The notes under the pieces are model-generated. The model was not told the DNA's origin. It made no database searches and was given only the letters and a program-made list of their open reading frames with translations. From an uncultured Clostridia bacterium (GTDB taxonomy: Bacteria > Bacillota > Clostridia > Oscillospirales > CAG-272): DNA of 64,000 bases. Below are positions 3,705-51,072 of the stretch, in pieces; position 1 is the stretch's first letter, and each line of letters begins with the position of its first letter. Location of the stretch: assembly GCA_947628165.1 (NCBI GenBank), contig CANQYV010000001.1, positions 12,314 to 76,313 of the forward strand, written 5' to 3'. The position numbers and the translations under genes were made by a program.

Positions 3705-5108
3705 ATGAAGAAACGGATTTGCGCAATGCTGCTTGCGATTTCGGCGCTGTTATTTATCTGCGCCTGCGGCAGGGATGCCGTGTCAAACGCAGAGATGCCG
3801 GAAACTGACGGGAGTGTTCTGACAGCCGGACCTGATGATGCGGACGGGTCTGCGCCTGCGGAGGGCGGCAAGGATATTTTGCCGAAAGCAAAGGGAGAGC
3901 TGTCGCTGCTATATCATATGCAGAGGCAGTATGCCGAAAGCTTTACCGAAAACGGGTATTACTATCTGACGCTCGAAGCTGAGCGCCTTTCGGACGGGCG
4001 TGACGCGTGGCATCTTATGTATATGGATTTTGCTGCAAGACAGGAGATATATCTTTGCAGCGACGCGTCGTGCAGTCATAATACCGCTGACTGCACATCG
4101 GTTTTCCCGACCGATGAATTCGGCTTTTCAACGGCGCTCTTTGTTATGAACGACAGTCTCTTTATCCTTAGTAAGGAGCAGGACCATGACGGTTCTGCCG
4201 TGATGGGTGTTCTCGGTGACGGTTCGGGCGCCGCCGTTGAGGCGGAACCGACTGTTCTTTACAGGGCGAATCTTGACGGAACGGGGAGAGAAAAGCTCTA
4301 TACATTCGATCCGTCCGTGACCGTTGAAGATATCGCCGCAGGAGACGGCAAAGGTCTGTTTTTTATTACGAAAAAGGTGACAACGGAGGAGGGCGGCGGT
4401 TTTACATATCAGACCTCCGCCGAACGGAAGCTCGTATATCTCGAACTCGGTCAAAAAAAGGAGACTGCGCTCTTCTCAATGGATTTCGGCGACAACATCG
4501 ACTGGGACATCATCGGCTGTTCGGGACGAAAGCTGATTCTTTACGGTATAGACTTCGGGCGCGAGCTGTCGGAGGAGGAGAAGCATTCGGAGGGGAGCTC
4601 CAAATATGAAGGCTCATCGGGTGTTTTTGCGACTGTCGACGTTGACAGCTGGACCCTACATGAGATATATCGAAAGAAAAAATTACTATATGAGGCCGAG
4701 GTCGACAAAAACAAACTGTACCTTGGTAAGGACGGCGAAATAATAAGCGTAGATCTAAATACGGGGGCGAGCAGTACGCTCTGCACGGTTCCCGATACCC
4801 AACTTTGGGGAATTGTCGACGGCAGGCTTTATACACGCAGTGATAAAGACAAGACCTTATATTTTATCGATACCGAAACAGGCGATATAAGCCATTGCGG
4901 TCTTGTTGACAGATCTACGGGTTCGAGCCTTGACATTGTCGCGCCTGCGGGCGAGTTTGTCCTTGTGATTTACGACAGCGATGTGACGCCGAGAAAAGAC
5001 GGCTCTTTTACTGTCCACGGCTACAGATACGCGCTTATAGAAAAGGATGACCTTTTTTCCGGCAGAGATAATTTTGCGCCTATAAAAATGACAGGGAGCG
5101 GTCTTTAA
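3705..5108 (+). CDS. putative lipoprotein with beta-propeller-like (TolB/DUF5050-like) repeats
   Basis: MKKRICAMLLAISALLFICACG signal/lipobox after a GGAGAGG RBS. Repeated LY..NLDG.G.EKLY-type motifs. Function unknown. Confidence 0.6.
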   Translation: MKKRICAMLLAISALLFICACGRDAVSNAEMPETDGSVLTAGPDDADGSAPAEGGKDILPKAKGELSLLYHMQRQYAESFTENGYYYLTLEAERLSDGRDAWHLMYMDFAARQEIYLCSDASCSHNTADCTSVFPTDEFGFSTALFVMNDSLFILSKEQDHDGSAVMGVLGDGSGAAVEAEPTVLYRANLDGTGREKLYTFDPSVTVEDIAAGDGKGLFFITKKVTTEEGGGFTYQTSAERKLVYLELGQKKETALFSMDFGDNIDWDIIGCSGRKLILYGIDFGRELSEEEKHSEGSSKYEGSSGVFATVDVDSWTLHEIYRKKKLLYEAEVDKNKLYLGKDGEIISVDLNTGASSTLCTVPDTQLWGIVDGRLYTRSDKDKTLYFIDTETGDISHCGLVDRSTGSSLDIVAPAGEFVLVIYDSDVTPRKDGSFTVHGYRYALIEKDDLFSGRDNFAPIKMTGSGL

Positions 5109-5110
5109 AG

Positions 5111-5860
5111 ATGCTTGAGCTTTACGAAATTTCAAAAAAATACAGGGACAAGGTCGCGCTGGCGTCCGTTTCGCTGAGGCTTGATAACGGAATATACGGC
5201 CTATTGGGCCCGAACGGTGCGGGAAAGTCAACGCTCATGAATATTATAGCGGGCAATTTAAGGCCCGACTGCGGGCAGGTAATGTGGTACGGAAAAAGCA
5301 TTTCCGAGCTTGGCTCCGCGTATCGCTCCATTCTCGGATATGCCCCGCAGCAGCATGGAATGTACGATTCATTCACGGGACGCCGGTTTCTCTCATATAT
5401 GGCGGCGCTGAAGGGCATTCGGAAGAAGAATATGCGAGATGAGATATCAAGGGTCCTATCGTTTGTCAATATGACCGGCGCGGCGGATAGGGCAATCGGC
5501 ACCTATTCCGGCGGAATGAAACAGAGAATTCTTATCGCGCAGGCAATCCTCGGCACCCCGCGCCTTATTATATTGGACGAACCGACCGCCGGACTTGACC
5601 CAAAGGAGCGGGTTCGGATCCGTGAACGGATTTCTGCGCTCGCGGGGGATAAGATCATTTTGATCTCGACTCATGTCGTGTCAGATATAGAATCCATAGC
5701 AAAAGAGATCATATTGTTGAAATCCGGCACGGTTATAGACCAAGCTCCCGTTATAGAGCTTTGCAAAAGATATAATGCTTCGGGGCTTGAGGACGTTTAT
5801 ATGCAGCTATTCTGTGAAGAGGAGAAAAATGGGCACAGTGTGGAGACTGACAGCCTTTGA
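5111..5860 (+). CDS. ABC transporter ATP-binding protein
   Basis: Walker A GPNGAGKST, signature YSGGMKQR, Walker B LIILDEPTAGLD. Confidence 0.9.
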   Translation: MLELYEISKKYRDKVALASVSLRLDNGIYGLLGPNGAGKSTLMNIIAGNLRPDCGQVMWYGKSISELGSAYRSILGYAPQQHGMYDSFTGRRFLSYMAALKGIRKKNMRDEISRVLSFVNMTGAADRAIGTYSGGMKQRILIAQAILGTPRLIILDEPTAGLDPKERVRIRERISALAGDKIILISTHVVSDIESIAKEIILLKSGTVIDQAPVIELCKRYNASGLEDVYMQLFCEEEKNGHSVETDSL

Positions 5861-8162: not shown

Positions 8163-9086
8163 CTACAGCGTTCTTGTTTCGCGGTATTTTATCGGGGTCA
8201 TATGGACGTACTTTTTGAAAACTTTGCCGAAATAATTGCCGTTGTCATATCCGCAAAGGCGGGCGATTTTATCTATGGGATAATTTGTATCCACAAGCAG
8301 CTTTAACGCATGGCTCATCCGTATTTTTGTGAGGTACTCGAGAGGGGACTCTTTGACCTCGGCGGAAAAAACGCGGGTAAGGTGGCTTTGCGAAACGCCG
8401 AGAATTTCGGCAGCCTCGGCAATTCCCCTCAAGTCCGCATACCGCGACTGAAAAAGGTCTGTCGCCTGCTTATTCAGGCGGCAGAATTTTTCTGCAGCAT
8501 TTGAAGCGCAGCAGAGCTTATTCAGAAAATCAAACGCAGCGGAGGAGGCGATCAGGCTGTTGTCAAGCAGATTTTTTTGGGCATTCAGATAGATCTCAAC
8601 GGCGCTTTTTACGGCGGGGTCGTCCTCGTCGAGATAAAATATATCGCCTTTGACGCTTTTTATTTTATCGTAATACGGACCGAGATATTTGCCCATGAAA
8701 AGAACGAAAATAAATTTCCATTCGGCTGTCTCGGGATCGCAGTAATATTTCGTCTCGCTCGGGATATAGGTAAAGAATGCCTGTCCGGGAGTTAAGACGG
8801 TCTTACTGCCGCCGATCTCGAAAATGCCCGAGCCTTCAAGCGTGTACTGAAAGAGGTAGCTGTCTATTTTTCGATTCTTGTTGTCGAAAAAATATGACGC
8901 ATCGGAGCGCACCTCAACGCCGACGCCCGTAAGACGTATCAGCGGTTCCGAAACCTCGTCAATAAACGGGAAACCGATAGTGCCGGAAAAAATGTCAATC
9001 AAAATATTACCCTCCAAATCAAATAAGTGCGATTGCGGTATAGAGTTATTGCTGATACAATTATAATTGAAAGACGAAATATGCAA
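8163..9086 (-). CDS. AraC-family transcriptional regulator
   Basis: C-terminal double HTH (AEILGVSQSHLTRVF ... IARLCGYDNGNYFGKVFKKYVHMTPIKYRE) and an N-terminal cupin-like sensing part. GC is lower than its neighbours by eye. Confidence 0.85.
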   Translation of the reverse strand: MHISSFNYNCISNNSIPQSHLFDLEGNILIDIFSGTIGFPFIDEVSEPLIRLTGVGVEVRSDASYFFDNKNRKIDSYLFQYTLEGSGIFEIGGSKTVLTPGQAFFTYIPSETKYYCDPETAEWKFIFVLFMGKYLGPYYDKIKSVKGDIFYLDEDDPAVKSAVEIYLNAQKNLLDNSLIASSAAFDFLNKLCCASNAAEKFCRLNKQATDLFQSRYADLRGIAEAAEILGVSQSHLTRVFSAEVKESPLEYLTKIRMSHALKLLVDTNYPIDKIARLCGYDNGNYFGKVFKKYVHMTPIKYRETRTL

Positions 9087-9131: not shown

Positions 9132-9160
9132 ATTATACCACATGCCTGCGAAAATAGAAA
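9132..9160 (-). promoter_or_regulatory. extended -10 promoter for the AraC gene
   Basis: The minus strand reads TGGTATAAT (-10 at 9132-9137). The -35 is weak (TTTCTA) at 17-nt spacing. It lies about 45 nt upstream of the ATG at 9086. Confidence 0.5.
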
Positions 9161-39594: not shown

Positions 39595-40254
39595 TTATTT
39601 TTTTGCCGCCTCGCGGAGCTTTTTTACGGCTCCCGAGATGTCGGGGTCACCGAATACCGCGCTGCCCGTGACGATGACGTTTGCGCCCGCGCCGACGGCC
39701 GTCCCGATATTTTCTCTTCTGATGCCGCCGTCGACCTCGATCTTGAAGCCTTTGAGCCCGCGGCGGTCCGTCTCTGCACGCAGCGCGCTGACCTTTTCAA
39801 GGGTTTCGGGGATTATATGCTGCCCGCCGAAACCCGGCTCGACAGTCATTATGAGTATCATGTCGGCGTCGTTTATGTACGGGAACACTGTCTCGATCGG
39901 CGTTTTCGGGCTGACCGTGAGTGAAGGATGGACGCCGAGCGTGCGTATTTTTGAAAGCGTTTTGTGCGGATCGCTCAGCCGTTCGATGTGGACGGAGAGA
40001 AAATCGGCGCCGGACTCGCAGGCAAGTGTGACATATTTGTCGGGATCGTCTATCATCAGATGGACGTCGAGCGGTATGCTGAAATGTGCGCTAAGCGATT
40101 TGATTATAGGAAAGCCGAAGCTGATATTCGGGACGAAGACGCCGTCCATGACGTCGACGTGTATCATGTTTGCGCCTCCCGCCTGAGCGGCGGCGACCTG
40201 TTCACCCAGAATTGCGAAGTTTGATGCGAGTATGGACGGGGAAATGTAGATCAT
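39595..40254 (-). CDS. rpe: ribulose-phosphate 3-epimerase
   Basis: ISPSILASNF ... HVDVMDG.FVPN ... MTVEPGFGGQ motifs. AAGGAG RBS before ATG 40254. Confidence 0.9.
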   Translation of the reverse strand: MIYISPSILASNFAILGEQVAAAQAGGANMIHVDVMDGVFVPNISFGFPIIKSLSAHFSIPLDVHLMIDDPDKYVTLACESGADFLSVHIERLSDPHKTLSKIRTLGVHPSLTVSPKTPIETVFPYINDADMILIMTVEPGFGGQHIIPETLEKVSALRAETDRRGLKGFKIEVDGGIRRENIGTAVGAGANVIVTGSAVFGDPDISGAVKKLREAAKK

Positions 40255-40293
40255 AAAAAACTCCTTTGTCGCTTGCGGGATCAAAAAAATTTA

Positions 40294-40519: not shown

Positions 40520-41026
40520 TTACGGCTCCGCGCTTATGATAGAACCGATGAGGGCGACCGCGTGAGCCGCGATGCCGAGACGGGAGCCGGTAAAACCGAG
40601 CCCCTCTTCAGTCGTGGCCTTGACGTTGACAGAGTCTATACCGACGCCGAGCGCGTCGGCAATACGGCGTCTTATCTCTCCGATATAAGGGGAGAGCTTC
40701 GGCGTTTCCGTTATTACGGTGGCGTCGACGTTTATCACGCGGAAGCCCTTGTCGCTGAGCATACCGGAAACGGTTTTTGCAAGCGAGAGGCTGTCGGCGC
40801 CTCGGTAACGCTCGTCCTTGTCGGGAAAATAGTACCCTATATCGCGAAGTCCGGCGGCTCCGAGCAGTGCGTCCATTACGGCGTGCGTCAACACGTCCGC
40901 GTCCGAATGACCGAGAAGTCCCGGATGGTCCGGAATATGAACTCCGCCGAGAATGAGCGGACGCGAGGTGTCAAACCTGTGGACGTCATACCCGTGACCT
41001 ATTCTGATCTGTGTATTGTCCGTCAT
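40520..41026 (-). CDS. ispF: 2-C-methyl-D-erythritol 2,4-cyclodiphosphate synthase
   Basis: IRIGHGYDVHRF ... GHSDADV ... motifs and the canonical ~160-aa length. Confidence 0.95.
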   Translation of the reverse strand: MTDNTQIRIGHGYDVHRFDTSRPLILGGVHIPDHPGLLGHSDADVLTHAVMDALLGAAGLRDIGYYFPDKDERYRGADSLSLAKTVSGMLSDKGFRVINVDATVITETPKLSPYIGEIRRRIADALGVGIDSVNVKATTEEGLGFTGSRLGIAAHAVALIGSIISAEP

Positions 41027-41775
41027 CGGGGCAGTTCTCTTTCCTTTCGGCGCCGCAGGATCTCCTCGGCGCGAATTATATCTTCGGGGTAAGTTATCTT
41101 TATGTTGTCGGCGCCGACATCAACGAGCTTTACTTTAAAGCCGAGGCGCTCCGCGAGCATACAGTCATCCGTCGCCTCGAACTCTTCGTCACGCGCCGTA
41201 TAAGCGCATGCGCGGTAGAGATTTGCGGAGAAAACCTGAGGAGTTGACACGAGCCACACTCTGTCTCTGTCTATCGTATGGTCGATAAAGTCGTGTCCGT
41301 CGGAATACTTTACGGTGTCGACGACGCGGCTTGCGGCGGCGGCGGCGCGGTATTTCACGGCGGCGCGGCATACGCTTTCTATCATTTCGGGCGTGATAAG
41401 GCACCTTGCGGCGTCATGCAGCGCTATAAGGTCCGCTTTAGGATTGCACGCTTCAAGACCGGACAGCGCGGAGCCCTGCCTTGTGCTTTTTCCCGGGACG
41501 AGCCGTTTCACTTTGGCGGGAAGCGTGCCTGACGAAGTAAGGGCCGCCTTCCGTTCGCGGAAGCCGTCCGCGGGGAGGACAAGCACGATCTCGTCAATAA
41601 GAGGGCATGAGTCAAACGCGGTGAGCGTCCTTTCAAGGACCGTCATCCCGCCGACGAGTGCGTCGACCTTTCCGCCGCCGAAGCGTGAAGCACTCCCGGC
41701 GGCAAGGATAACGGCCGAGCACGTCGCCCGCTTGACGTTCAGTATTCTGTCAAAATTATTGAAAACAATCTTCAT
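41023..41775 (-). CDS. ispD: 2-C-methyl-D-erythritol 4-phosphate cytidylyltransferase
   Basis: AVILAAGSASRFG P-loop-like motif. 4-nt overlap with ispF. Start uncertain (ATG 41775 or GTG 41790), and neither has a strong RBS. Confidence 0.88.
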   Translation of the reverse strand: MKIVFNNFDRILNVKRATCSAVILAAGSASRFGGGKVDALVGGMTVLERTLTAFDSCPLIDEIVLVLPADGFRERKAALTSSGTLPAKVKRLVPGKSTRQGSALSGLEACNPKADLIALHDAARCLITPEMIESVCRAAVKYRAAAAASRVVDTVKYSDGHDFIDHTIDRDRVWLVSTPQVFSANLYRACAYTARDEEFEATDDCMLAERLGFKVKLVDVGADNIKITYPEDIIRAEEILRRRKERELPR

Positions 41776-41817: not shown

Positions 41818-41974
41818 ACATTAAACCACGAAGCAAAAATGCTTGCTTGCAAGAGCATTTTTGCGAGGCCGTCAATATCGAGCCGGCGGCGAAGCCGCCG
41901 CAAAAGCTCAGCTTTTGAGACTTGCAAAGCACAACTTTGCAAGTCTGCGAAGATATTATACCACAAGCAAATCC
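41818..41974 (-). repeat. copy A of a two-copy structured element (candidate sRNA or cis-regulatory leader) upstream of ispD
   Basis: Core at 41825-41964. The minus strand starts with GTGACA, 17 nt, then TGGTATAAT (-10 at 41955-41960). Four hairpins follow: 41918-41946, 41901-41917, 41885-41899 and 41833-41864. It ends in TGGTTTAAT about 43 nt before the ispD ATG. Confidence 0.6.
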
Positions 41975-42025
41975 GTTTGTCACTATACGTCGGATATTAA
42001 GTTTCACATTTTTTGTATCATAAAC

Positions 42026-42054
42026 TTGCCGACGGGGGCAAAAAGTGGTACAAT
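42026..42054 (+). promoter_or_regulatory. candidate promoter of pepD
   Basis: TTGCCG, 17 nt, TACAAT, with an upstream TG (extended -10). Confidence 0.5.
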
Positions 42055-42090
42055 TACGGACAAGAGTTCAACATACGGAGGTCACTTGAA

Positions 42091-43515
42091 ATGGCATATA
42101 TCATAAACGGCAGGGAGCCGGAGAAGCTTTATCATCGCTTTGAGGACATCGCCTCGCTGCCGCACGGTTCGGGAAACGAAAAGGCGCTTGCGGACTACAT
42201 CGTAAAGTTTGCGGAAGATATCGGACTTTATGTCCTGCGCGACGAAAAAAACAACGTGTTCGTAAGAAGAGACGCGTCGCCGGGGTATGAAGATCATCCG
42301 CCGGTCCTTATTCAGGGGCACATAGACATGGTCTGCGAGGCGGACCCTGATGTGAAAATAGATTGGGAGCACGAGGGCGTAAAGCTGCGCCTTGACGGTT
42401 ATATGCTTTCCGCAAGCGGGACGACGCTCGGAGCCGACGACGGAGTCGCCGTCGCCATCATGCTCGCGCTGCTCGAAGATAAGGGGCTTTGCGCGCCCAC
42501 AATAGAATGTCTTTTCACAACGGAAGAGGAAACGGGGCTCACCGGCGCGTCCTCTTTCGATTATTCCAACCTAAAATCCCGCCGCATGATAAATCTCGAT
42601 ACGGGCGGCGAGGTAATAATAGTTTCGTGCGCCGGAGGGATGAGGACCCTGATCTCGGCAACCGCAGAGATGCAAGACTATAAAGGCACTGTTATGACAG
42701 TTTCCGTCGACGGGCTTGCGGGAGGTCATTCGGGCGCGGACATCCATCTCGGGCGCGGAAACGCAAATCTGATCGCGCTTAGGCTTGCGGAGGCAGCAGG
42801 CGGGCAGCTCGTGAGCATTCACGGCGGCAGCAAGGACAACGCGATCCCCTCAAGATGCAGAATTTCATTTGCATGTGAGGATGCGGACGCCGCAAAAAAA
42901 GCCGTTTTAGAATGCGAAAAAAAGATAAGGGAAGAGCTCACCGAGGCGGACGCGGGGATGAAAACAGCCGTCTCGACGGAAGAATTTGAAGGGAAGATCC
43001 CTTGCCGTGACTTTACAGACAGGCTCCTTTCATTTACTTCCGAGGTGCCGACCGGGGTTATCTCCATGTGCGAGGCGATAGACATGGTCGAAACGTCTCA
43101 GAATTACGCGATAATAGATCTTGACGAGAACGGCAGATTTGCTCTGCATCTTTCGGCTCGCTCGTCTGTTGACGAAGTTCTTGACAAAATGGAGCGAGAG
43201 ATCGGTGCACTTGCCGCAAAATACGGCTTCCGCGCCGAGACAGGCTCAAGGTACAACGGATGGAGCTACGAGCCGAGCTCGCCGATAAGAGACGTATATA
43301 TCGAGGTTTACCGCGAGACGGCAGGTCATGACATACCCGTTATGGGCATCCACGCCGGGCTCGAATGCGGCATAATCAAGCGCGCCGTCCCCGACATGGA
43401 TATAATAGCGACCGGAGCCGTCACCCTCGGTGAGCATACGACGAGGGAAGCGCTCGACCTTAACTCCTTCGCGCTCGTTTACGAAACCGTGAAGAAATTA
43501 TGCAGTCGTCTGTAA
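42091..43515 (+). CDS. pepD: aminoacyl-histidine (Xaa-His) dipeptidase
   Basis: MAYIINGREP ... SLPHGSGNEK start after a GGAGG RBS. M20-family motifs HIDMV and GADDGVAVA. Confidence 0.9.
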   Translation: MAYIINGREPEKLYHRFEDIASLPHGSGNEKALADYIVKFAEDIGLYVLRDEKNNVFVRRDASPGYEDHPPVLIQGHIDMVCEADPDVKIDWEHEGVKLRLDGYMLSASGTTLGADDGVAVAIMLALLEDKGLCAPTIECLFTTEEETGLTGASSFDYSNLKSRRMINLDTGGEVIIVSCAGGMRTLISATAEMQDYKGTVMTVSVDGLAGGHSGADIHLGRGNANLIALRLAEAAGGQLVSIHGGSKDNAIPSRCRISFACEDADAAKKAVLECEKKIREELTEADAGMKTAVSTEEFEGKIPCRDFTDRLLSFTSEVPTGVISMCEAIDMVETSQNYAIIDLDENGRFALHLSARSSVDEVLDKMEREIGALAAKYGFRAETGSRYNGWSYEPSSPIRDVYIEVYRETAGHDIPVMGIHAGLECGIIKRAVPDMDIIATGAVTLGEHTTREALDLNSFALVYETVKKLCSRL

Positions 43516-43526
43516 CGGCAAATGAC

Positions 43527-43564
43527 AAAAATAAAAAGAGCGGCACGCAAAACAGCCGCCGCTC
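43527..43564 (-). terminator. weak stem-loop terminator for the minus-strand hypothetical gene
   Basis: 7-bp stem gagcggc / gccgctc. On the minus strand it is followed by tttttatttttg. Confidence 0.45.
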
Positions 43565-43645
43565 ATAAAACAGTATCGAGAGACTATGTATCTGTGTGCC
43601 CTTTAGTTCCTAAAGGGGTTTGCAACTGCGTATCAAACTTTAAGT

Positions 43646-44353
43646 TTATATATCGAACAAAAATACGTTTGGCACAACATCGGAACCAAAAGTTTTTACT
43701 GCCATTCGATACATAGCCTTTGCATGAATTCTGTCGTGCCATATAAAACGTCTCAACACTTTTCTTAATGACCATTTCTCATCATAGCTTCCAAGATAGA
43801 TTATATTTTTTAAGAAATCAGGCTTGTCTTCGAGTGCGGCAAATCCACGCTCCCTGCACTCTAAGATTGTGCCCTCATTATCCGCAGAAACGCCTATCTC
43901 ATCGAAATAATATTCATTGACGTTCTTTGTATGCTCGTACATCTCAAACGCAGTACGAGGGACCTGACCGTAGAATGTCTCTCTGACCGGCAGACAGCTT
44001 TTATTCTTATCAGGTATTGCCTGATACAACGTCAAAAAATCAAGTGCCGATTTTAAGGCAAGGGCTTTCAAATCCGCATACTCGGACAGGCTTAATTCTT
44101 CTTTTTCCGCGTCAAAGAGGACATCTGAATCAGCGTCGGAAACCGCCAACTCAGATTGTTTTTCCTGAATTATTTCGAGTTCAAATGAGTCCGGCATTAA
44201 GTCGCCCTTCCATCTGAGATATGATTTAATTTCGGCAGGCATTTTCCGAAGTGCGATATCTCTGGAATTTCCTCTTGTAAATGCTCCGACAAAATTATCC
44301 GCATACAAAATACAGTCGTCGCCGTTATGTTCCCATACGCATCTTATTTTCAT
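43646..44353 (-). CDS. hypothetical protein: HicB-like N-terminal fold fused to a DinB/YfiT-like helical domain
   Basis: The N-terminus MKIRCVWEHNGDDCILYADNFVGAFTRGNS resembles HicB-type antitoxin domains. The C-terminus has WHDRIHAKAM-type His motifs. The gene is markedly AT-richer than its flanks. AAGGAGAG RBS. Confidence 0.5.
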   Translation of the reverse strand: MKIRCVWEHNGDDCILYADNFVGAFTRGNSRDIALRKMPAEIKSYLRWKGDLMPDSFELEIIQEKQSELAVSDADSDVLFDAEKEELSLSEYADLKALALKSALDFLTLYQAIPDKNKSCLPVRETFYGQVPRTAFEMYEHTKNVNEYYFDEIGVSADNEGTILECRERGFAALEDKPDFLKNIIYLGSYDEKWSLRKVLRRFIWHDRIHAKAMYRMAVKTFGSDVVPNVFLFDI

Positions 44354-44410
44354 TGGTAAATCTCTCCTTTGTAAATCCCGCTTGCCGAATAGTCACATAC
44401 CCGACAGTTA

Positions 44411-44572
44411 ACATTCTACCACGAAGCAAAAATGCTTGCTCGCAGAGCTATAGAGCATTTTTGCGAGGCCGTCAATATAGAGCCGGCGACGCAGCCGCCG
44501 CAAAAGCGCAGCGTTTGAAGACTTGCTAAGTGAAACTTTGCAAGTCTGCGAAGATATTATACCACCCAAATG
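44411..44572 (-). repeat. copy B of the structured element, upstream of the HicB/DinB-like gene
   Basis: Core at 44418-44565, same orientation as copy A. The minus strand has TGGTATAAT (-10 at 44556-44561). It ends in TGGTAGAAT about 58 nt before ATG 44353. Confidence 0.6.
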
Positions 44573-44638
44573 TGAAGAAATCTACTGTCCGTTAATATGC
44601 TTAATCGAATTTTTTTGAAGTTTCTGCCCACCTCGAAT

Positions 44639-44681
44639 AAAAAACGCTCCGGCGATTTTGTCCTCGTCCGGAGCGTTTTTT
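44639..44681. terminator. bidirectional intrinsic terminator
   Basis: 14-bp stem aaaaaacgctccgg / ccggagcgtttttt. It lies ~115 nt downstream of the minus-strand gene ending at 44798. Confidence 0.7.
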
Positions 44682-44797
44682 ATTCGATGTCCTTGCCAGT
44701 CTTAAAGACAAGCTAAAACAACATAATGTTTTATGACCATTCCCGCAAAGCTGCTATTTTATTTTTGACAGATGAAGAATTTTACAAACGCATATTA

Positions 44798-45445
44798 TCA
44801 ATACACGAAGTAGCCGCGGCTGCTGCGCGAGAAGATGAGCTTGTCGTGATACGTTTTCATCGATTTGTCGTTGATATTGTGTATGTGGACGGGGACGGCG
44901 CCTGGCGCGAGCGCAAGGTATTCGCCGATAGTCTCCTTCGGAACGAGCATTTTCGGCTCCACCGTCAGAAGAAAATGAACTATCTTTGCCTCGCTCTTCG
45001 AGAGCAGCAGCTTTGTTCCGTTATAATACACCTGCGCGGGCTTTCCGAGCGCGCATACGATCTCCTCGTCCTCGGCATACGACGGATCTATCTTGAACGT
45101 CTCCTTCAGGATGGTCATGAGCTCGGAAACCGCCGTGTCGGGCATGGGGGGCAGCACCGTCACCCGCTCGCTCTCGTTTATGTCATACGGCTCGCCGACA
45201 TAGATAATGATGGCGTTTTCGGCGTTGTCGGAAACATAATCCGTGAGCGCTTTGGCGGGGGAAGAGTATATGGGGGAATAAATGATGATTATGTCGACAG
45301 TGTCTATATTTTCTTTAACTCCGTTGAAATCGGACGTGTGAAAATATATTCCCGACCCGGAAAGCTCATGACGCAGCTCGTCAGTATTTGTCTTTTCATC
45401 TGCGGCGAGCAGTATCACCGGGTAATCTTTTCTGAACTTTATCAT
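44798..45445 (-). CDS. atypical response-regulator-like protein: degenerate receiver plus OmpR/PhoB-type winged helix
   Basis: C-terminal LSKSEAKIVHFLL ... VPVHIHNINDK ... SRGYFV resembles Trans_reg_C. The N-terminal half is receiver-like, but DIIIIYSP replaces the usual LLD phospho-acceptor context. Confidence 0.55.
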   Translation of the reverse strand: MIKFRKDYPVILLAADEKTNTDELRHELSGSGIYFHTSDFNGVKENIDTVDIIIIYSPIYSSPAKALTDYVSDNAENAIIIYVGEPYDINESERVTVLPPMPDTAVSELMTILKETFKIDPSYAEDEEIVCALGKPAQVYYNGTKLLLSKSEAKIVHFLLTVEPKMLVPKETIGEYLALAPGAVPVHIHNINDKSMKTYHDKLIFSRSSRGYFVY

Positions 45446-46728
45446 CTTTTATGTGCCTCCTCGGATATAAAAACAGCTGATATAATTTTTGAAAGTGTTA
45501 GTCTGTTCCTCACATACGGTGAGAAATAAAGAGAAAGTTTTGTGAATTTGTCGTTATCGGGAAGAGATATCTCATCAAGCGCGGCGGGACATCCGCATGA
45601 GCGGAGCAGATCCCGTATCTTTTCCGGTGCGGGCAGGCTTTCAATAAGCCGACCTATTTCTTCGGCATGTGCCGTCAACGAGTTATTGCCTAACTTTGCG
45701 ATAACAGACGAGCCTTTGCCGTTTGGAATATTTTCTTTGATTATGCCGTCAGTCAACGAACCGTATACGGGGCGTATGACATCGTCACTGAAAATTATGC
45801 TTTCGTCTATATCAAACGGCTTATCTATGATATCGGCATTTGACTTTAAATGCAACAGCATAAGAGCCGTGCCGACCGCTACTTTTTCGCCGTGGAGCGC
45901 GTCCGTCGGCTCGTTTGCCGCGTGCATCTCCCAAAAATGTGACATATGATGCTCGGATCCGGACGCGGGTCTTGAGTTTCCCGAAAGCTGCATGCAGAGC
46001 CCAGACAAGAGAAGTCCGTTCATCACGAGCAGGGGAAGCTTCGGGTCGTCGGCGTTGTTTTCTGCGGCGTAGATTATTCCTCCGAGAGCTTCCTTCATCA
46101 TGGAGTAAATCGGGGAGCAGAGCGGCTCGCCCGTGAGTATGTTCGATATTTTCCAGTCAAAAAGCGCCGTTATCTTTCCGATCATGTCCCCGATGCCGGA
46201 AGCCGTAAGTTTTCTCGGCGCCGACGAGAAAACAGCCGGTTCCGCGAAAAGGGCGACGGGAGAGCTTGACGGGTACGTCAGCTTCTGCCCGTACATCGTC
46301 ATCGCGGCGACGCCCGAAACAAAGCCGTCGACGCTCGCTGCGGTCGGGTATGAGATGAAAGGCGTGCCGATCTCATGCGCGCAGTACCTGACGATATCGT
46401 GTACCGAGCCCGAGCCGCAGGCGATCATTGCCGAGGGCGCGCCGCTTGCTTTTATGTAGGATGAAAGGCGGGCAGTCTCGATCTCGTTTGCGTGCGCGTT
46501 ACCAGGGAGGGTAAACGCGCGGCAGCCGACGGAAGAGATTATCGGCAACGCGTATTTTTCCGTATTTTCATCGGATACAACGAGAATGTCTTTTGCGGAA
46601 AAATTCTTTTTAAGGTAAGAGATCAGAAGCTCCGTCGCGCCGTCGCGGCACTCGAGCACGGACGTTTTTATCGCGTGCTTCTGCCCGCACGGACATGATG
46701 CGACGAGTTTCTGCGCTTCTTTCAGCAT
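45442..46728 (-). CDS. sn-glycerol-1-phosphate dehydrogenase-family (AraM/EgsA-like) iron-containing alcohol dehydrogenase superfamily protein
   Basis: ACGSGSVHDIVRY nucleotide-binding loop. GIGDMIGK, SGSEHHMSHFWEM and HGEKVAVG metal-ligand motifs. Confidence 0.7.
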   Translation of the reverse strand: MLKEAQKLVASCPCGQKHAIKTSVLECRDGATELLISYLKKNFSAKDILVVSDENTEKYALPIISSVGCRAFTLPGNAHANEIETARLSSYIKASGAPSAMIACGSGSVHDIVRYCAHEIGTPFISYPTAASVDGFVSGVAAMTMYGQKLTYPSSSPVALFAEPAVFSSAPRKLTASGIGDMIGKITALFDWKISNILTGEPLCSPIYSMMKEALGGIIYAAENNADDPKLPLLVMNGLLLSGLCMQLSGNSRPASGSEHHMSHFWEMHAANEPTDALHGEKVAVGTALMLLHLKSNADIIDKPFDIDESIIFSDDVIRPVYGSLTDGIIKENIPNGKGSSVIAKLGNNSLTAHAEEIGRLIESLPAPEKIRDLLRSCGCPAALDEISLPDNDKFTKLSLYFSPYVRNRLTLSKIISAVFISEEAHKR

Positions 46729-49662: not shown

Positions 49663-51072
49663 TTATTTCTTTTTGCACCGCAGAAAGAGCTTTCCGAGCG
49701 CGCGGCCGTTCCACGGAATAAGAGGGTAAAGATAGCTCTTGCCGCACACGCCCTTCATCGTCAGAAGAAGGACGAGAATGACAATAAGCCCGCCGCAGAA
49801 GCCCCATATGCCGAAAAGCGCCGTCAGCAAAAGCAGCATGAGGCGGAAATACTTGAATGCGTATCCGAGCTCATAATTCGACTGCGTGAAGTTCGAGATG
49901 GCGGTGAATGCCATGTAGAATATGACCTCCGGCACGAGCCAGCCCGTCTCGATCGCAAAGTCGCCGAGCAAAAGACCGCCTATGATGGAGAGCGAGTTCG
50001 ACATTGTCGACGGCGTCGTAAGCGAGGCGAGCTTCAGCACGTCAAGGGCGAACTCTGTCAGGAAAAGCTGTACGATTATCGGCAGCGCGCCGAGCTCGTT
50101 CGGAAGGATAAAATGAAGCCATGAGGGAAGATATTCCGAGTGGGTGATGAGAAGATACCAAAGCGGCGTTATGAAGATGGTGGACGCGAAAACGAGCATC
50201 CTTATGATGCGAAGATACGAGCCTGTGAACGGCGGAAAATAGAAGTCGTTCGTCTCCTGTAAAAAGTCGAATATAGATGTCGGCAAAAGCATCGCTTCCG
50301 GCGAGGTATCGCAGAGAACGGCAACGCCGCCTTCGAGCAGATGCGCCGCCGTCGCGTCCGGACGCTCCGTCAGGCGCACCTTGGGGAACGGATTATACCA
50401 CTGTCGGCGGCAGAGCGCCTCCGTCAGCGACTGATGACCGAGCGGGAGCGCGTCCGTGTCTGCGTTCTCAAGCTGAGAGGAGAGCCTGTTTACAAAATCG
50501 ATGTCGGCAACGCCGTCGATATAGGCGACGACGACGTCAGTTTTTGATTTCCTTCCGACGCAGATATACTTCATCGTCAGCCGTGTGTCGCGTATCCTGC
50601 GGCGTATCAGCGCCGTGTTGAAGATGAGCGTCTCAACAAAGCCGTCGCGCGCGCCGCGCATCACGCGGTCGTTCTCGGCGTCCTGCGTGTCGCGCGAGGG
50701 GTACGAGCGCAGGTCTATGACAATCGCTTCGCCCGCGAAGCCGTCCGTCACCATGAGGCAGCAGCCGCCGAGCACTGAGCGCACGATGTCGTCTCCGTTC
50801 GTCGTGACGTCGACCTCGACGTCCGGCAGGTGGACCGCCGCGAAGCGCGCGGCGGCGCCGGGCTGTCCGTCGCCGAGGTCTGAAAGCCCGACGAGGAACA
50901 TCAACAGCTTTTGCAGCTCGCCGCCTTTTATGAACCCGTCTATATAATAGAGCACGCCCGTGTGACCGCCCGCCTCGATCTGCCGCTTTATCATATCGAA
51001 ATTAGAATCGACGAGAAGCGTTTCGTCTATCGATTTTACGGTCGCGTCGAGGTCGCCCGATATGTTTATCAT
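49663..51072 (-). CDS. GerA-family spore germination protein (SpoVAF/GerAA-like)
   Basis: A soluble N-terminal half (YYIDGFIKGGELQKLL ... PSRDTQDAENDRVMRGARDGFVE) and a C-terminal half with about five TM helices, as in GerAA/SpoVAF. AAAGGGGG RBS. Confidence 0.75.
   Translation of the reverse strand: MINISGDLDATVKSIDETLLVDSNFDMIKRQIEAGGHTGVLYYIDGFIKGGELQKLLMFLVGLSDLGDGQPGAAARFAAVHLPDVEVDVTTNGDDIVRSVLGGCCLMVTDGFAGEAIVIDLRSYPSRDTQDAENDRVMRGARDGFVETLIFNTALIRRRIRDTRLTMKYICVGRKSKTDVVVAYIDGVADIDFVNRLSSQLENADTDALPLGHQSLTEALCRRQWYNPFPKVRLTERPDATAAHLLEGGVAVLCDTSPEAMLLPTSIFDFLQETNDFYFPPFTGSYLRIIRMLVFASTIFITPLWYLLITHSEYLPSWLHFILPNELGALPIIVQLFLTEFALDVLKLASLTTPSTMSNSLSIIGGLLLGDFAIETGWLVPEVIFYMAFTAISNFTQSNYELGYAFKYFRLMLLLLTALFGIWGFCGGLIVILVLLLTMKGVCGKSYLYPLIPWNGRALGKLFLRCKKK

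Follow-up and report, generated by a model that had tools for sequence, protein, structure and literature searches.

Introduction

Integron cassettes combine a variable content with a conserved imperfect 3' palindrome (attC) and a short core repeat and are stacked behind a promoter, and the palindrome-associated transposable elements (PATEs) derived from IS200/IS605 as well as the repetitive extragenic palindromic (REP) and REPIN elements are moved by HUH Y1 enzymes. A repeated element with features of both was analysed in a stretch of 64,000 nucleotides from an uncultured Clostridia bacterium (contig CANQYV010000001.1, positions 12,314 to 76,313; this whole stretch is called the window). It occurs there in two copies, A and B, read along the minus strand, ahead of ispD and of a gene for a protein of 235 amino acids (aa). 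The explanation favoured here, with moderate confidence, is that each copy is a unit of a modular, non-coding and non-autonomous mobile cassette which inserts at the -10 hexamers of host promoters. The cassette family in gut Clostridia is apparently undescribed, and a literature search on the module sequence and on small elements targeting the -10 region gave nothing relevant. That it stands for a new class of site-specific cassettes in these bacteria, with the -10 hexamer as attachment site, exchangeable cargo of structured RNA, a module for recombination and promoter replacement, arrays, and a recombinase acting in trans, is a wider and more tentative proposal.

As proposed, a unit would have three parts: a cargo, structured and variable, of about 70-85 nucleotides (nt), which in the window is of type 1 with a closing stem and three hairpins; a conserved 3' module made of ATTGACGGYCTC, a hairpin of 10-11 bp with A/T tracts, and TTCG; and at the 3' end its own TGGTATAAT-like box. 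Integration would take place, with a single orientation, precisely at the -10 hexamer of a sigma-70-type host promoter, after which the host -35 and -10 would precede the cassette and the 3' box would stand at the original distance from the start site of the gene. Stacking would be possible since each unit brings a new target.

Putative mobile promoters have been defined as similar promoter-bearing upstream sequences before non-homologous genes within or between genomes (Matus-Garcia, Nijveen and van Passel 2012, PMC3488235). The module and box studied here correspond to this definition, as they stand before ispD, the 235-aa gene and a gene for an extracytoplasmic function (ECF) sigma factor with 86-98% identity. 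The class is however descriptive and without defined anatomy (PMC3488235), to which the cassette adds junctions at the -10, the 3' module, exchangeable cargos and arrays.

Empty Sites and the Ancestral Promoter

Copy A (41820-41964) and copy B (44413-44565) lie in the same orientation about 2.6 kb apart and are mutual closest relatives. A preliminary description of the window had judged them by eye to be roughly 90% identical apart from an 8-nt indel, and blastn confirmed this with 87.1% identity over 155 columns, including indels of 8 and 1 nt, while a repeat search of the window gave blocks of 88-93% identity. The 8-nt indel falls in the last loop, the insertion being in hairpin 4 of copy B. 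No third copy is present in the 64-kb window. The positions of the features are collected in Table 1.

A miniature insertion element with a duplicated target was among the readings first offered, and sites with a single box and no element do exist for both copies. For copy B they are found in L010, L011 and L012, another rabbit-gut metagenome-assembled genome (MAG) and two contigs of the European Nucleotide Archive (ENA), in which the homologue of the 235-aa gene is 88% identical. They read ...CACATTTGG GTGGTATAAT GTTAAAT... or, with the upstream sequence, ...CAGTAGATTTCTTCACATTTGG GTGGTATAAT GTTAAAT...; these flanks are found again in the window, separated there by 143 nt, and the two blastn pieces of L010 against the window overlap by exactly the 10-nt box. 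For copy A the empty site is that of L026, a strain from the same IspD cluster at 90%, with ispD 93% and the upstream flank 97.7% identical to the window. It has one box and the element is missing (...GATTTGCTT GTGGTATAAT AAAG...TTGCCTTTCGTC..., in a longer reading ...ATAGTGACAAAACGATTTGCTT GTGGTATAAT AAAGCATAAAATGCTTGCCTTTCGTC...ATG). Both copies are present in the Lapin-033 MAG (the Lapin strain), with 94.3% identity to the window strain over the 3 kb compared; all four of its boxes are GTGGTATAAT, including the 3' box of copy A. The inserted units measure 135 nt (A), 143 nt (B in the window) and 132 nt (B in the Lapin strain). These alignments show that both window copies are insertions whose junctions lie inside the box.

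Directly after its box L026 has 11 extra nt (CATAAAATGCT; 128-145) as compared with the filled alleles. They make up a small palindrome, AAGCAT-AAA-ATGCTT, similar to the arms of hairpin 4, and may represent either a footprint or an indel of independent origin.

The 5' box had been taken as an extended -10 promoter of the element's own. The GTGACA reported 17 nt ahead of copy A's first box was found again in the promoter scan, where it gives an 11/12 promoter match with TG. The ispD promoter, ATAGTGACAAA-N-TGTGnTATAAT, is however kept in all sister species (L003, L004, L007), although blastn finds no parts of the element in their ispD leaders and the sequence 3' of the -10 is unrelated among them (about 60, 100 and 570 nt). 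Because sister species without the element share them, the -35 and the first -10 at ispD predate the element. The 5' box at ispD hence belongs to the ancestral host promoter, and only the 3' box travels with the element. This second box is present near both genes, at 44 nt from the start codon of ispD and 59 nt from that of the 235-aa gene rather than at the 43 and 58 nt first given.

The host sequence before the ispD box (GATTTGCTT, 41965-41973) is similar to the 3' end of the element before its box (TTTTTGCTTC, 41830-41840). Because of this resemblance the direct repeat at site A extends over about 17/19 nt and not 10, a hint that integration was assisted by homology or was att-like.

The same data bear on a shared cis-regulatory leader, a riboswitch or attenuator through which a single signal would control ispD and the 235-aa gene. 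The location between promoter and gene at both loci would suit such a leader, as would its structure, in which tracts of A and U border a hairpin ahead of the gene. Yet the element is missing from the ispD leaders of the 93%-identical strain L026 and of the sister species, and its downstream genes are unrelated (ispD, the DinB-like 235-aa gene, an ECF sigma factor, a PF18073 zinc-ribbon gene and one of no known type). Units moreover stack in arrays, copy B is decaying, and there is no match in Rfam. With the presence/absence data the leader, which the preliminary description had kept as an option, looks largely refuted and is quite improbable.

Table 1. Features of the two copies and of their surroundings in the window. 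Window genes are listed in their order along the minus strand.
Feature	Position	Strand	Size	Basis or remark
Host -35 hexamer GTGACA, ancestral ispD promoter, outside the element	41978..41983	-		Promoter scan; ATAGTGACAAA at the same place in L003, L004, L007, L026
5' box GTGGTATAAT, host ispD extended -10, left junction of insertion A	41955..41964	-		Sole box of empty allele L026; 17 nt from GTGACA
Copy A cargo domain, type 1, closing stem and three hairpins	41877..41954	-		MFE folds; same four-way architecture in L030 and L031 units
Copy A hairpin 1	41918-41946		13 bp	MFE fold
Copy A hairpin 2	41901-41917		7 bp	MFE fold
Copy A hairpin 3	41884-41900		7 bp	MFE fold
Copy A conserved 3' module, ATTGACGGCCTC, hairpin 4, TTC	41830..41876	-		L028 match, hairpin-4 covariation
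Copy A hairpin 4, separate from the closed domain	41833-41864		11+2 bp	MFE fold
Copy A 3' box GTGGTTTAAT, right end of inserted unit	41820..41829	-		Unit 41820-41954 (135 nt) missing from L026
5' box GTGGTATAAT, own -10 of the 235-aa gene, left junction of insertion B	44556..44565	-		Sole box in L010, L011, L012, identical flanks
Copy B inserted unit, type-1 cargo, ATTGACGGCCTCG (44464-44476), hairpin 4, 3' box	44413..44555	-	143 nt	Empty-site comparison
Copy B 3' box GTGGTAGAAT	44413-44422	-		Right end of copy B unit
Fe-ADH_2 gene	45442-46728	-		Pfam
Open reading frame (ORF) of 215 aa	44798-45445	-	215 aa
Bidirectional terminator	44630-44690			Between 215-aa ORF and copy B
Low-G+C gene behind insertion B	43646..44353	-	235 aa	HicB-like N-terminal domain and DinB/YfiT-like four-helix bundle
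pepD-like M20 peptidase	42013-43515 (ORF as listed)	+		Start codon probably ATG at 42093
ispD (2-C-methyl-D-erythritol 4-phosphate cytidylyltransferase), behind insertion A	41023..41775	-		Pfam IspD, 1.3e-48
rpe	39595-40284			Further downstream of ispD

Fold and Conservation of the Units

Four hairpins per copy had been predicted and are recovered in the minimum free energy (MFE) fold, the third with 7 bp instead of 6. The fold of copy A has -59.2 kcal/mol (z = -4.9) and includes a closing stem TAATATC/GATATTG; that of copy B is weaker (z = -2.1). The opposite strand folds about equally well (z = -6.2), as is expected of DNA palindromes. The stem changes of copy B relative to copy A are the ones originally described, one G-U pair and two mismatches. 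Hairpin 1 (AGACTTGCAAAG...) shows no sequence relationship to hairpin 4 (GCAAAAATGCT...). The consensus scan reports no intrinsic terminator at the last hairpin and gives no backing to the terminator-like label which this had received: such a terminator would have a G+C-rich stem with a T-run right behind it, but here the T5 tract is paired to A5 within the stem and the tail, TTCGTGGT, brings no T-run.

Type-1 units from two tandem arrays found outside the window (L030 and L031, described below) share the architecture of copy A, that is closing stem, three hairpins, linker and hairpin 4, with different helix sequences, and the closing stem of type-1 units uses TAAT of the box and ATTG of the module. 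In hairpin 4 the pairs 2, 3 and 10 have double changes with wobble intermediates over 12 units. A covariance model was built and 11 matches were aligned with it for pairing statistics. In this alignment, which is fitted to the model and made up of units related to one another, 78.8% of the cells are paired versus 33-48% in controls with slid partners, and 22 pairs are changed on both sides versus 2-9, values that were reached in 0 of 500 shuffles. A count of 37 G-U against 30 A-C, meant to tell the folding strand, shows a small gap which leaves the strand undecided.

Another finding concerns the changes between strains. All 8 differences in copy A between the window and the Lapin strain fall within the 39 unpaired of 145 positions (P about 3e-5, or about 4e-4 when adjacent doublets are counted once). 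In copy B the stems are hit by 5/6 substitutions, and the Lapin copy has lost 11 nt of one arm of hairpin 4. Because these differences lie in loops in A and in stems in B, copy A is constrained, or its palindromes are being corrected by template switching, and copy B is decaying.

Conserved folding would also be expected if the units were genes for small regulatory RNAs, each with its own extended -10, a variable body, an exposed conserved linker AUUGACGGCCUCG containing the anti-Shine-Dalgarno-like CCUC, and a 3' hairpin, which spread by duplication or recombination and whose position at promoters is incidental or borrowed. The conserved architecture and helices with their covariation, the restriction of the copy A changes to loops, and the TGnTATAAT-like box ahead of nearly every unit fit this idea, and tandem arrays of small-RNA genes are known elsewhere (NsiR1, LhrC). 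It has to contend, however, with a last hairpin which lacks a T-run and is not a canonical terminator, with the lost stem pairs of copy B and the loss of half of hairpin 4 in one strain, and with a closing stem that needs the TAAT of the box, upstream of any start from that box. The internal boxes are without a -35 and several are degenerate (TGGTTTAAT, TAGTGAAAT), and template-switch correction can keep palindromes perfect without selection. Small-RNA genes of this kind, although compatible with mobility, are considered a doubtful explanation of the element as a whole. The small-RNA and antitoxin arrays NsiR1, LhrC1-4 and ToxI are similar in consisting of head-to-tail structured units upstream of a gene, some with their own promoter, but they are fixed loci without insertion polymorphism, whereas the cassettes precede unrelated genes; ToxI units, unlike cassettes, are about 36 nt long and lie before an endoribonuclease toxin gene. 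Within the cassette reading the transcripts would be candidates for small-RNA bodies with an exposed CCUC linker.

That the element belongs to no known RNA family, as stated in the preliminary description, was borne out by a scan of the window with Rfam 15, which gave no match at gathering thresholds (best sub-threshold match AaHKsRNA22, 24.5 versus 39.8 bits); L028, L030 and L031 gave none at E <= 1. A coding element was rejected, as the ORFs are in different frames in A and B, are broken by indels and are not conserved. An origin like that of diversity-generating retroelements (DGRs) was likewise rejected, since the differences between A and B, read from the alignment, are not adenine-specific.

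A Family with Exchangeable Cargos

Relatives of the element were found by searching protein databases with spurious ORFs which cross it. A search with a minus-frame ORF matched a 56-aa "protein" encoded on L027-L029, sequences with a G+C content of 0.42-0.44 as compared with 0.53 in the window. Their first box, TTTTCA-17-TATAAT, is read as aTGGTATAAT and followed by a cargo of 67 nt unrelated to that of the window (AGCCACAG...CTGTGGC), by ATTGACGGCCTCGCAAAAATGCTCTTGCAAGCAAGCATTTTTGCTTC, GTGGTATAAT and 53 nt, and then by the ECF sigma gene. The conserved 3' module with its box comprises 57 nt (ATTGACGGYCTC, hairpin, TTCG, TGGTATAAT), and copy A and L028, from an organism of 42% G+C, are identical in 56/57 of them.

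A search with a plus-frame ORF matched three "proteins" of 165-189 aa, each with 3-4 query matches spaced 42-45 aa apart, and the DNA behind these is made up of tandem arrays. L030, from Hadza gut, has an Amidase_3 gene, TTGCAA-17-TATAAT, four full units and a partial fifth (three of type 1, one of type 2 and the partial one), and then a gene beginning with a PF18073 zinc ribbon (RadA-like by eye). In L031 an rny-like gene (by eye, without Pfam match) and a terminator are followed by TTGAAA-17-TATAAT, three full units and a partial fourth in the order type 1, type 2, type 1, partial type 2, and a gene of no known type. The layout of a unit throughout the family is box, cargo, ATTGACGGYCTC, hairpin 4, TTCG and next box. 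At least three unrelated structured 5' cargo types are thus joined to the shared 3' module; the 5' ends of types 1, 2 and 3 are unrelated and the 3' end alone is common. Types 1 and 2 alternate or mix within the arrays, and at all five loci the orientation relative to the promoter is the same.

As read from the sequences, the first boxes have -35-like hexamers at 17 nt (GTGACA, TTTTCA, TTGCAA, TTGAAA), with the exception of site B, where TAGATT (3/6) is all that stands at the -35 position. At the same distance upstream of internal boxes the hexamers have, by eye, 2-3/6 matches to TTGACA, and these boxes are partly degenerate, with TGGTTTAAT before every type-2 unit and also TAGTGAAAT. In L030 and L031 the first box and the box of the unit agree over TATAAT and diverge only beyond it (TGT or TAG versus TGG). 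The junction is thereby placed at the hexamer, which speaks for a 3' box that is part of the element and not a staggered-cut duplication of fixed length.

Type-1 units which precede a type-2 unit in L030 and L031 end in TGGTTTAAT or TGGTTAAAT and not in TGGTATAAT. Copy A of the window likewise ends in TGGTTTAAT, a form whose hexamer no longer has the key A in position 2. The TGGTTTAAT variant may be a native form of the 3' box and not a random mutation.

The distribution of modules and cargos also bears on an explanation without any dedicated mobility, by which rare microhomology-mediated copying took place between nearby promoters sharing GTGGTATAAT and arrays arose by unequal crossing-over. 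The two window copies are only 2.6 kb apart and most closely related to each other, and the resemblance of GATTTGCTT to the element's 3' end TTTTTGCTTC would extend the homology at site A beyond 10 nt. The first copy would, however, still require an insertion to gain boxes at both ends, the 56/57 module occurs in an organism of very different G+C with other cargo and at an unrelated promoter, and arrays mix cargo types, so such copying is very unlikely to account for the family.

The ispD leader of the sister species L007 (3423-3851) has 3.1 tandem copies of a structured unit of 137 nt. Every one of these opens with TGTTTTAAT, a degenerate version of the promoter box TGTTATAAT, and has an ATTGA motif after the closed stem domain, a layout at the same host promoter which resembles that of the cassette family; the covariance model does not recognise these units.

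Proposed Mode of Integration

Transposable elements of the miniature inverted-repeat type (MITEs) have terminal inverted repeats of about 4-30 bp, and promoter-bearing ones such as the Neisseria Correia element are like the cassette in size (about 100-200 bp), in being non-coding and intergenic, often just upstream of genes, and in their direct repeats, -10-like boxes for neighbours and stably folding transcripts (PMC10969869). The cassette differs in having a promoter box of 9-10 nt as target instead of TA (PMC10969869), in that only the 3' end is common to its cargo types, in its very low copy number, and in its lack of terminal inverted repeats: none was found at 11 boundary registers in four copies (runs of at most 2, 3-10/25 matches). 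With this absence the element is not a plain REP or MITE.

A classical MITE in the strict sense would be internally deleted from an insertion sequence (IS) with DDE transposase, would duplicate 9-10 bp of target and would prefer TGGTATAAT. The element is small and non-coding, direct repeats of 9-10 bp flank three sites, GTGGTATAAT stands on both sides and singly in L010 and L026, and promoters as well as stable hairpin folds are frequent in MITEs (PMC10969869). Besides the missing inverted repeats, one and the same 9-mer is the target at 3/3 well-defined sites, which is unusual for a staggered-cut duplication; the direct repeat of L030 and L031 is exact only over TATAAT, first box and unit box being different outside this hexamer, and the cargo types share no 5' end. 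No parent IS was found in word scans of species genomes and of JGI metagenomes; the species-representative genome has two copies, and a 24-mer specific for cargo type 1 is unmatched elsewhere. An origin as a classical MITE is thus regarded as improbable.

Inverted repeats are lacking, the ends are asymmetric, the shared 3' module borders the junction and the target is sequence-specific; all of this would point toward conservative or HUH-type recombination rather than a DDE transposase. Conservative site-specific or single-strand (HUH-like) recombination would act at or just after TATAAT, with the enzyme provided in trans. PATEs and REPINs are like the cassette in lacking inverted terminal repeats and in having asymmetric ends, subterminal hairpins, orientation-specific insertion beside a short specific sequence and single-strand structure. 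In the cassette, however, left and right hairpins are unrelated, where PATEs have similar subterminal hairpins recognised by one TnpA and no target duplication, and the element has a copy of its target as its end; REPs are considerably shorter and mostly located at the 3' ends of genes. No TnpA or RAYT gene was seen in the surroundings of the cassettes. Integron cassettes share the modular build, the 3' palindrome, the repeated core and stacking in one orientation behind a promoter. The cassette differs from them by a cargo without ORF, by a TATAAT-like core instead of GTTRRRY and by the lack of an inverse core; the module contains no attC cores (RYYYAAC/GTTRRRY), and no integrase or attI was seen beside the arrays as far as the short contigs reach.

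As for the host gene, the promoter split by the cassette would transcribe it into a structured RNA, and the 3' box, an extended -10 without -35, together with read-through would keep the gene expressed. In the window one of the genes concerned is ispD, which is normally an essential gene of the isoprenoid pathway; insertion ahead of it would be tolerated because of this continued expression.

Several points weigh against such a mobile cassette. The growth of arrays is possible by unequal crossing-over alone, and the closing stem uses TAAT of the 5' box, which an RNA started from that box would exclude. The fitted alignment of related units and the undecided strand, given above with the pairing statistics, count here as well. 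The known loci are five, and the genome studied here has two copies 2.6 kb apart. The 24-mer, from the 5' end, was found among 185,579 species genomes only at the orthologous locus of one rabbit-gut MAG, and a 20-mer gave two chance matches in the JGI metagenomes, in a coding region only, both words being specific for cargo type 1. Four patterns searched in IMG/VR gave nothing or chance coding matches, and plasmids and phages gave no match with blastn. Ten ORFs of recombinase-like size in the window include no recombinase or transposase, and none was seen linked to any copy, on array contigs of merely 1.3-2.1 kb.

If the cassette reading is true, mobile DNA would settle inside promoters without silencing the gene behind, by an insertion which splits the promoter at the -10 hexamer and supplies a spare -10. 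In this way 5' leaders would be rewired and new promoter-driven structured RNAs would become possible, even ahead of ispD, which would help to account for leaders that are hypervariable and filled with repeats, like those of ispD in this clade. It would also imply a recombination activity with a specificity for a promoter box of 6-10 nt. The cassette is invisible to Rfam and would escape MITE finders based on inverted repeats because these are missing. In practice it breaks metagenome assemblies and yields spurious ORF calls. The contig L023 (901 nt, same species) ends inside copy B at its position 1, and since it stops at a 27-nt stretch identical between copies A and B, the repeat breaks short-read assemblies; gene callers emit spurious ORFs across the units (P0243-P0251).

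Gene Context and Minor Observations

In the sister species L003, L004/L005 and L007 IspD is 68-75% identical and the gene order is the same, with ispF (Pfam YgbB) between ispD and rpe. The 235-aa gene and copy B are both missing there between pepD and the 215-aa ORF, and the 235-aa gene is part of a horizontally acquired segment of ~950 nt (about 43642-44595).

The 235-aa gene itself has a low G+C content (0.41) and is a single-gene horizontal acquisition. Among 6153 homologues in the database the best 120 listed are 76-97% identical, and their genomic neighbourhoods are numerous and unrelated (behind argF, behind rpiB, in a Butyrivibrio MAG), the contigs often being ~1 kb long. No fitting Pfam, NCBIfam or PADLOC family was found for the protein. 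The AlphaFold 2 (AF2) model has a mean predicted local distance difference test (pLDDT) score of 89.7, and its Foldseek matches are YfiT/DinB and HicB N-terminal domains; the predicted fold joins a HicB-like N-terminus to a four-helix bundle of the DinB/YfiT type, in which a WHDRIH motif is invariant. Downstream of the homologue in L010 there are two RNA matches (4677-4783 and 5597-5710), a DUF3800-I RNA (97.5 bits) ahead of a DUF3800 gene and a weak match to the group II intron domains D1-D4.

Two more exact GTGGTATAAT sites without element are present in the window, both on the minus strand. The one at 50392-50401 appears to be within a coding region, and the one at 9132-9141, 46 nt ahead of where an ORF for an AraC-family regulator (8163-9086) has its first start codon, looks like the promoter of this gene.

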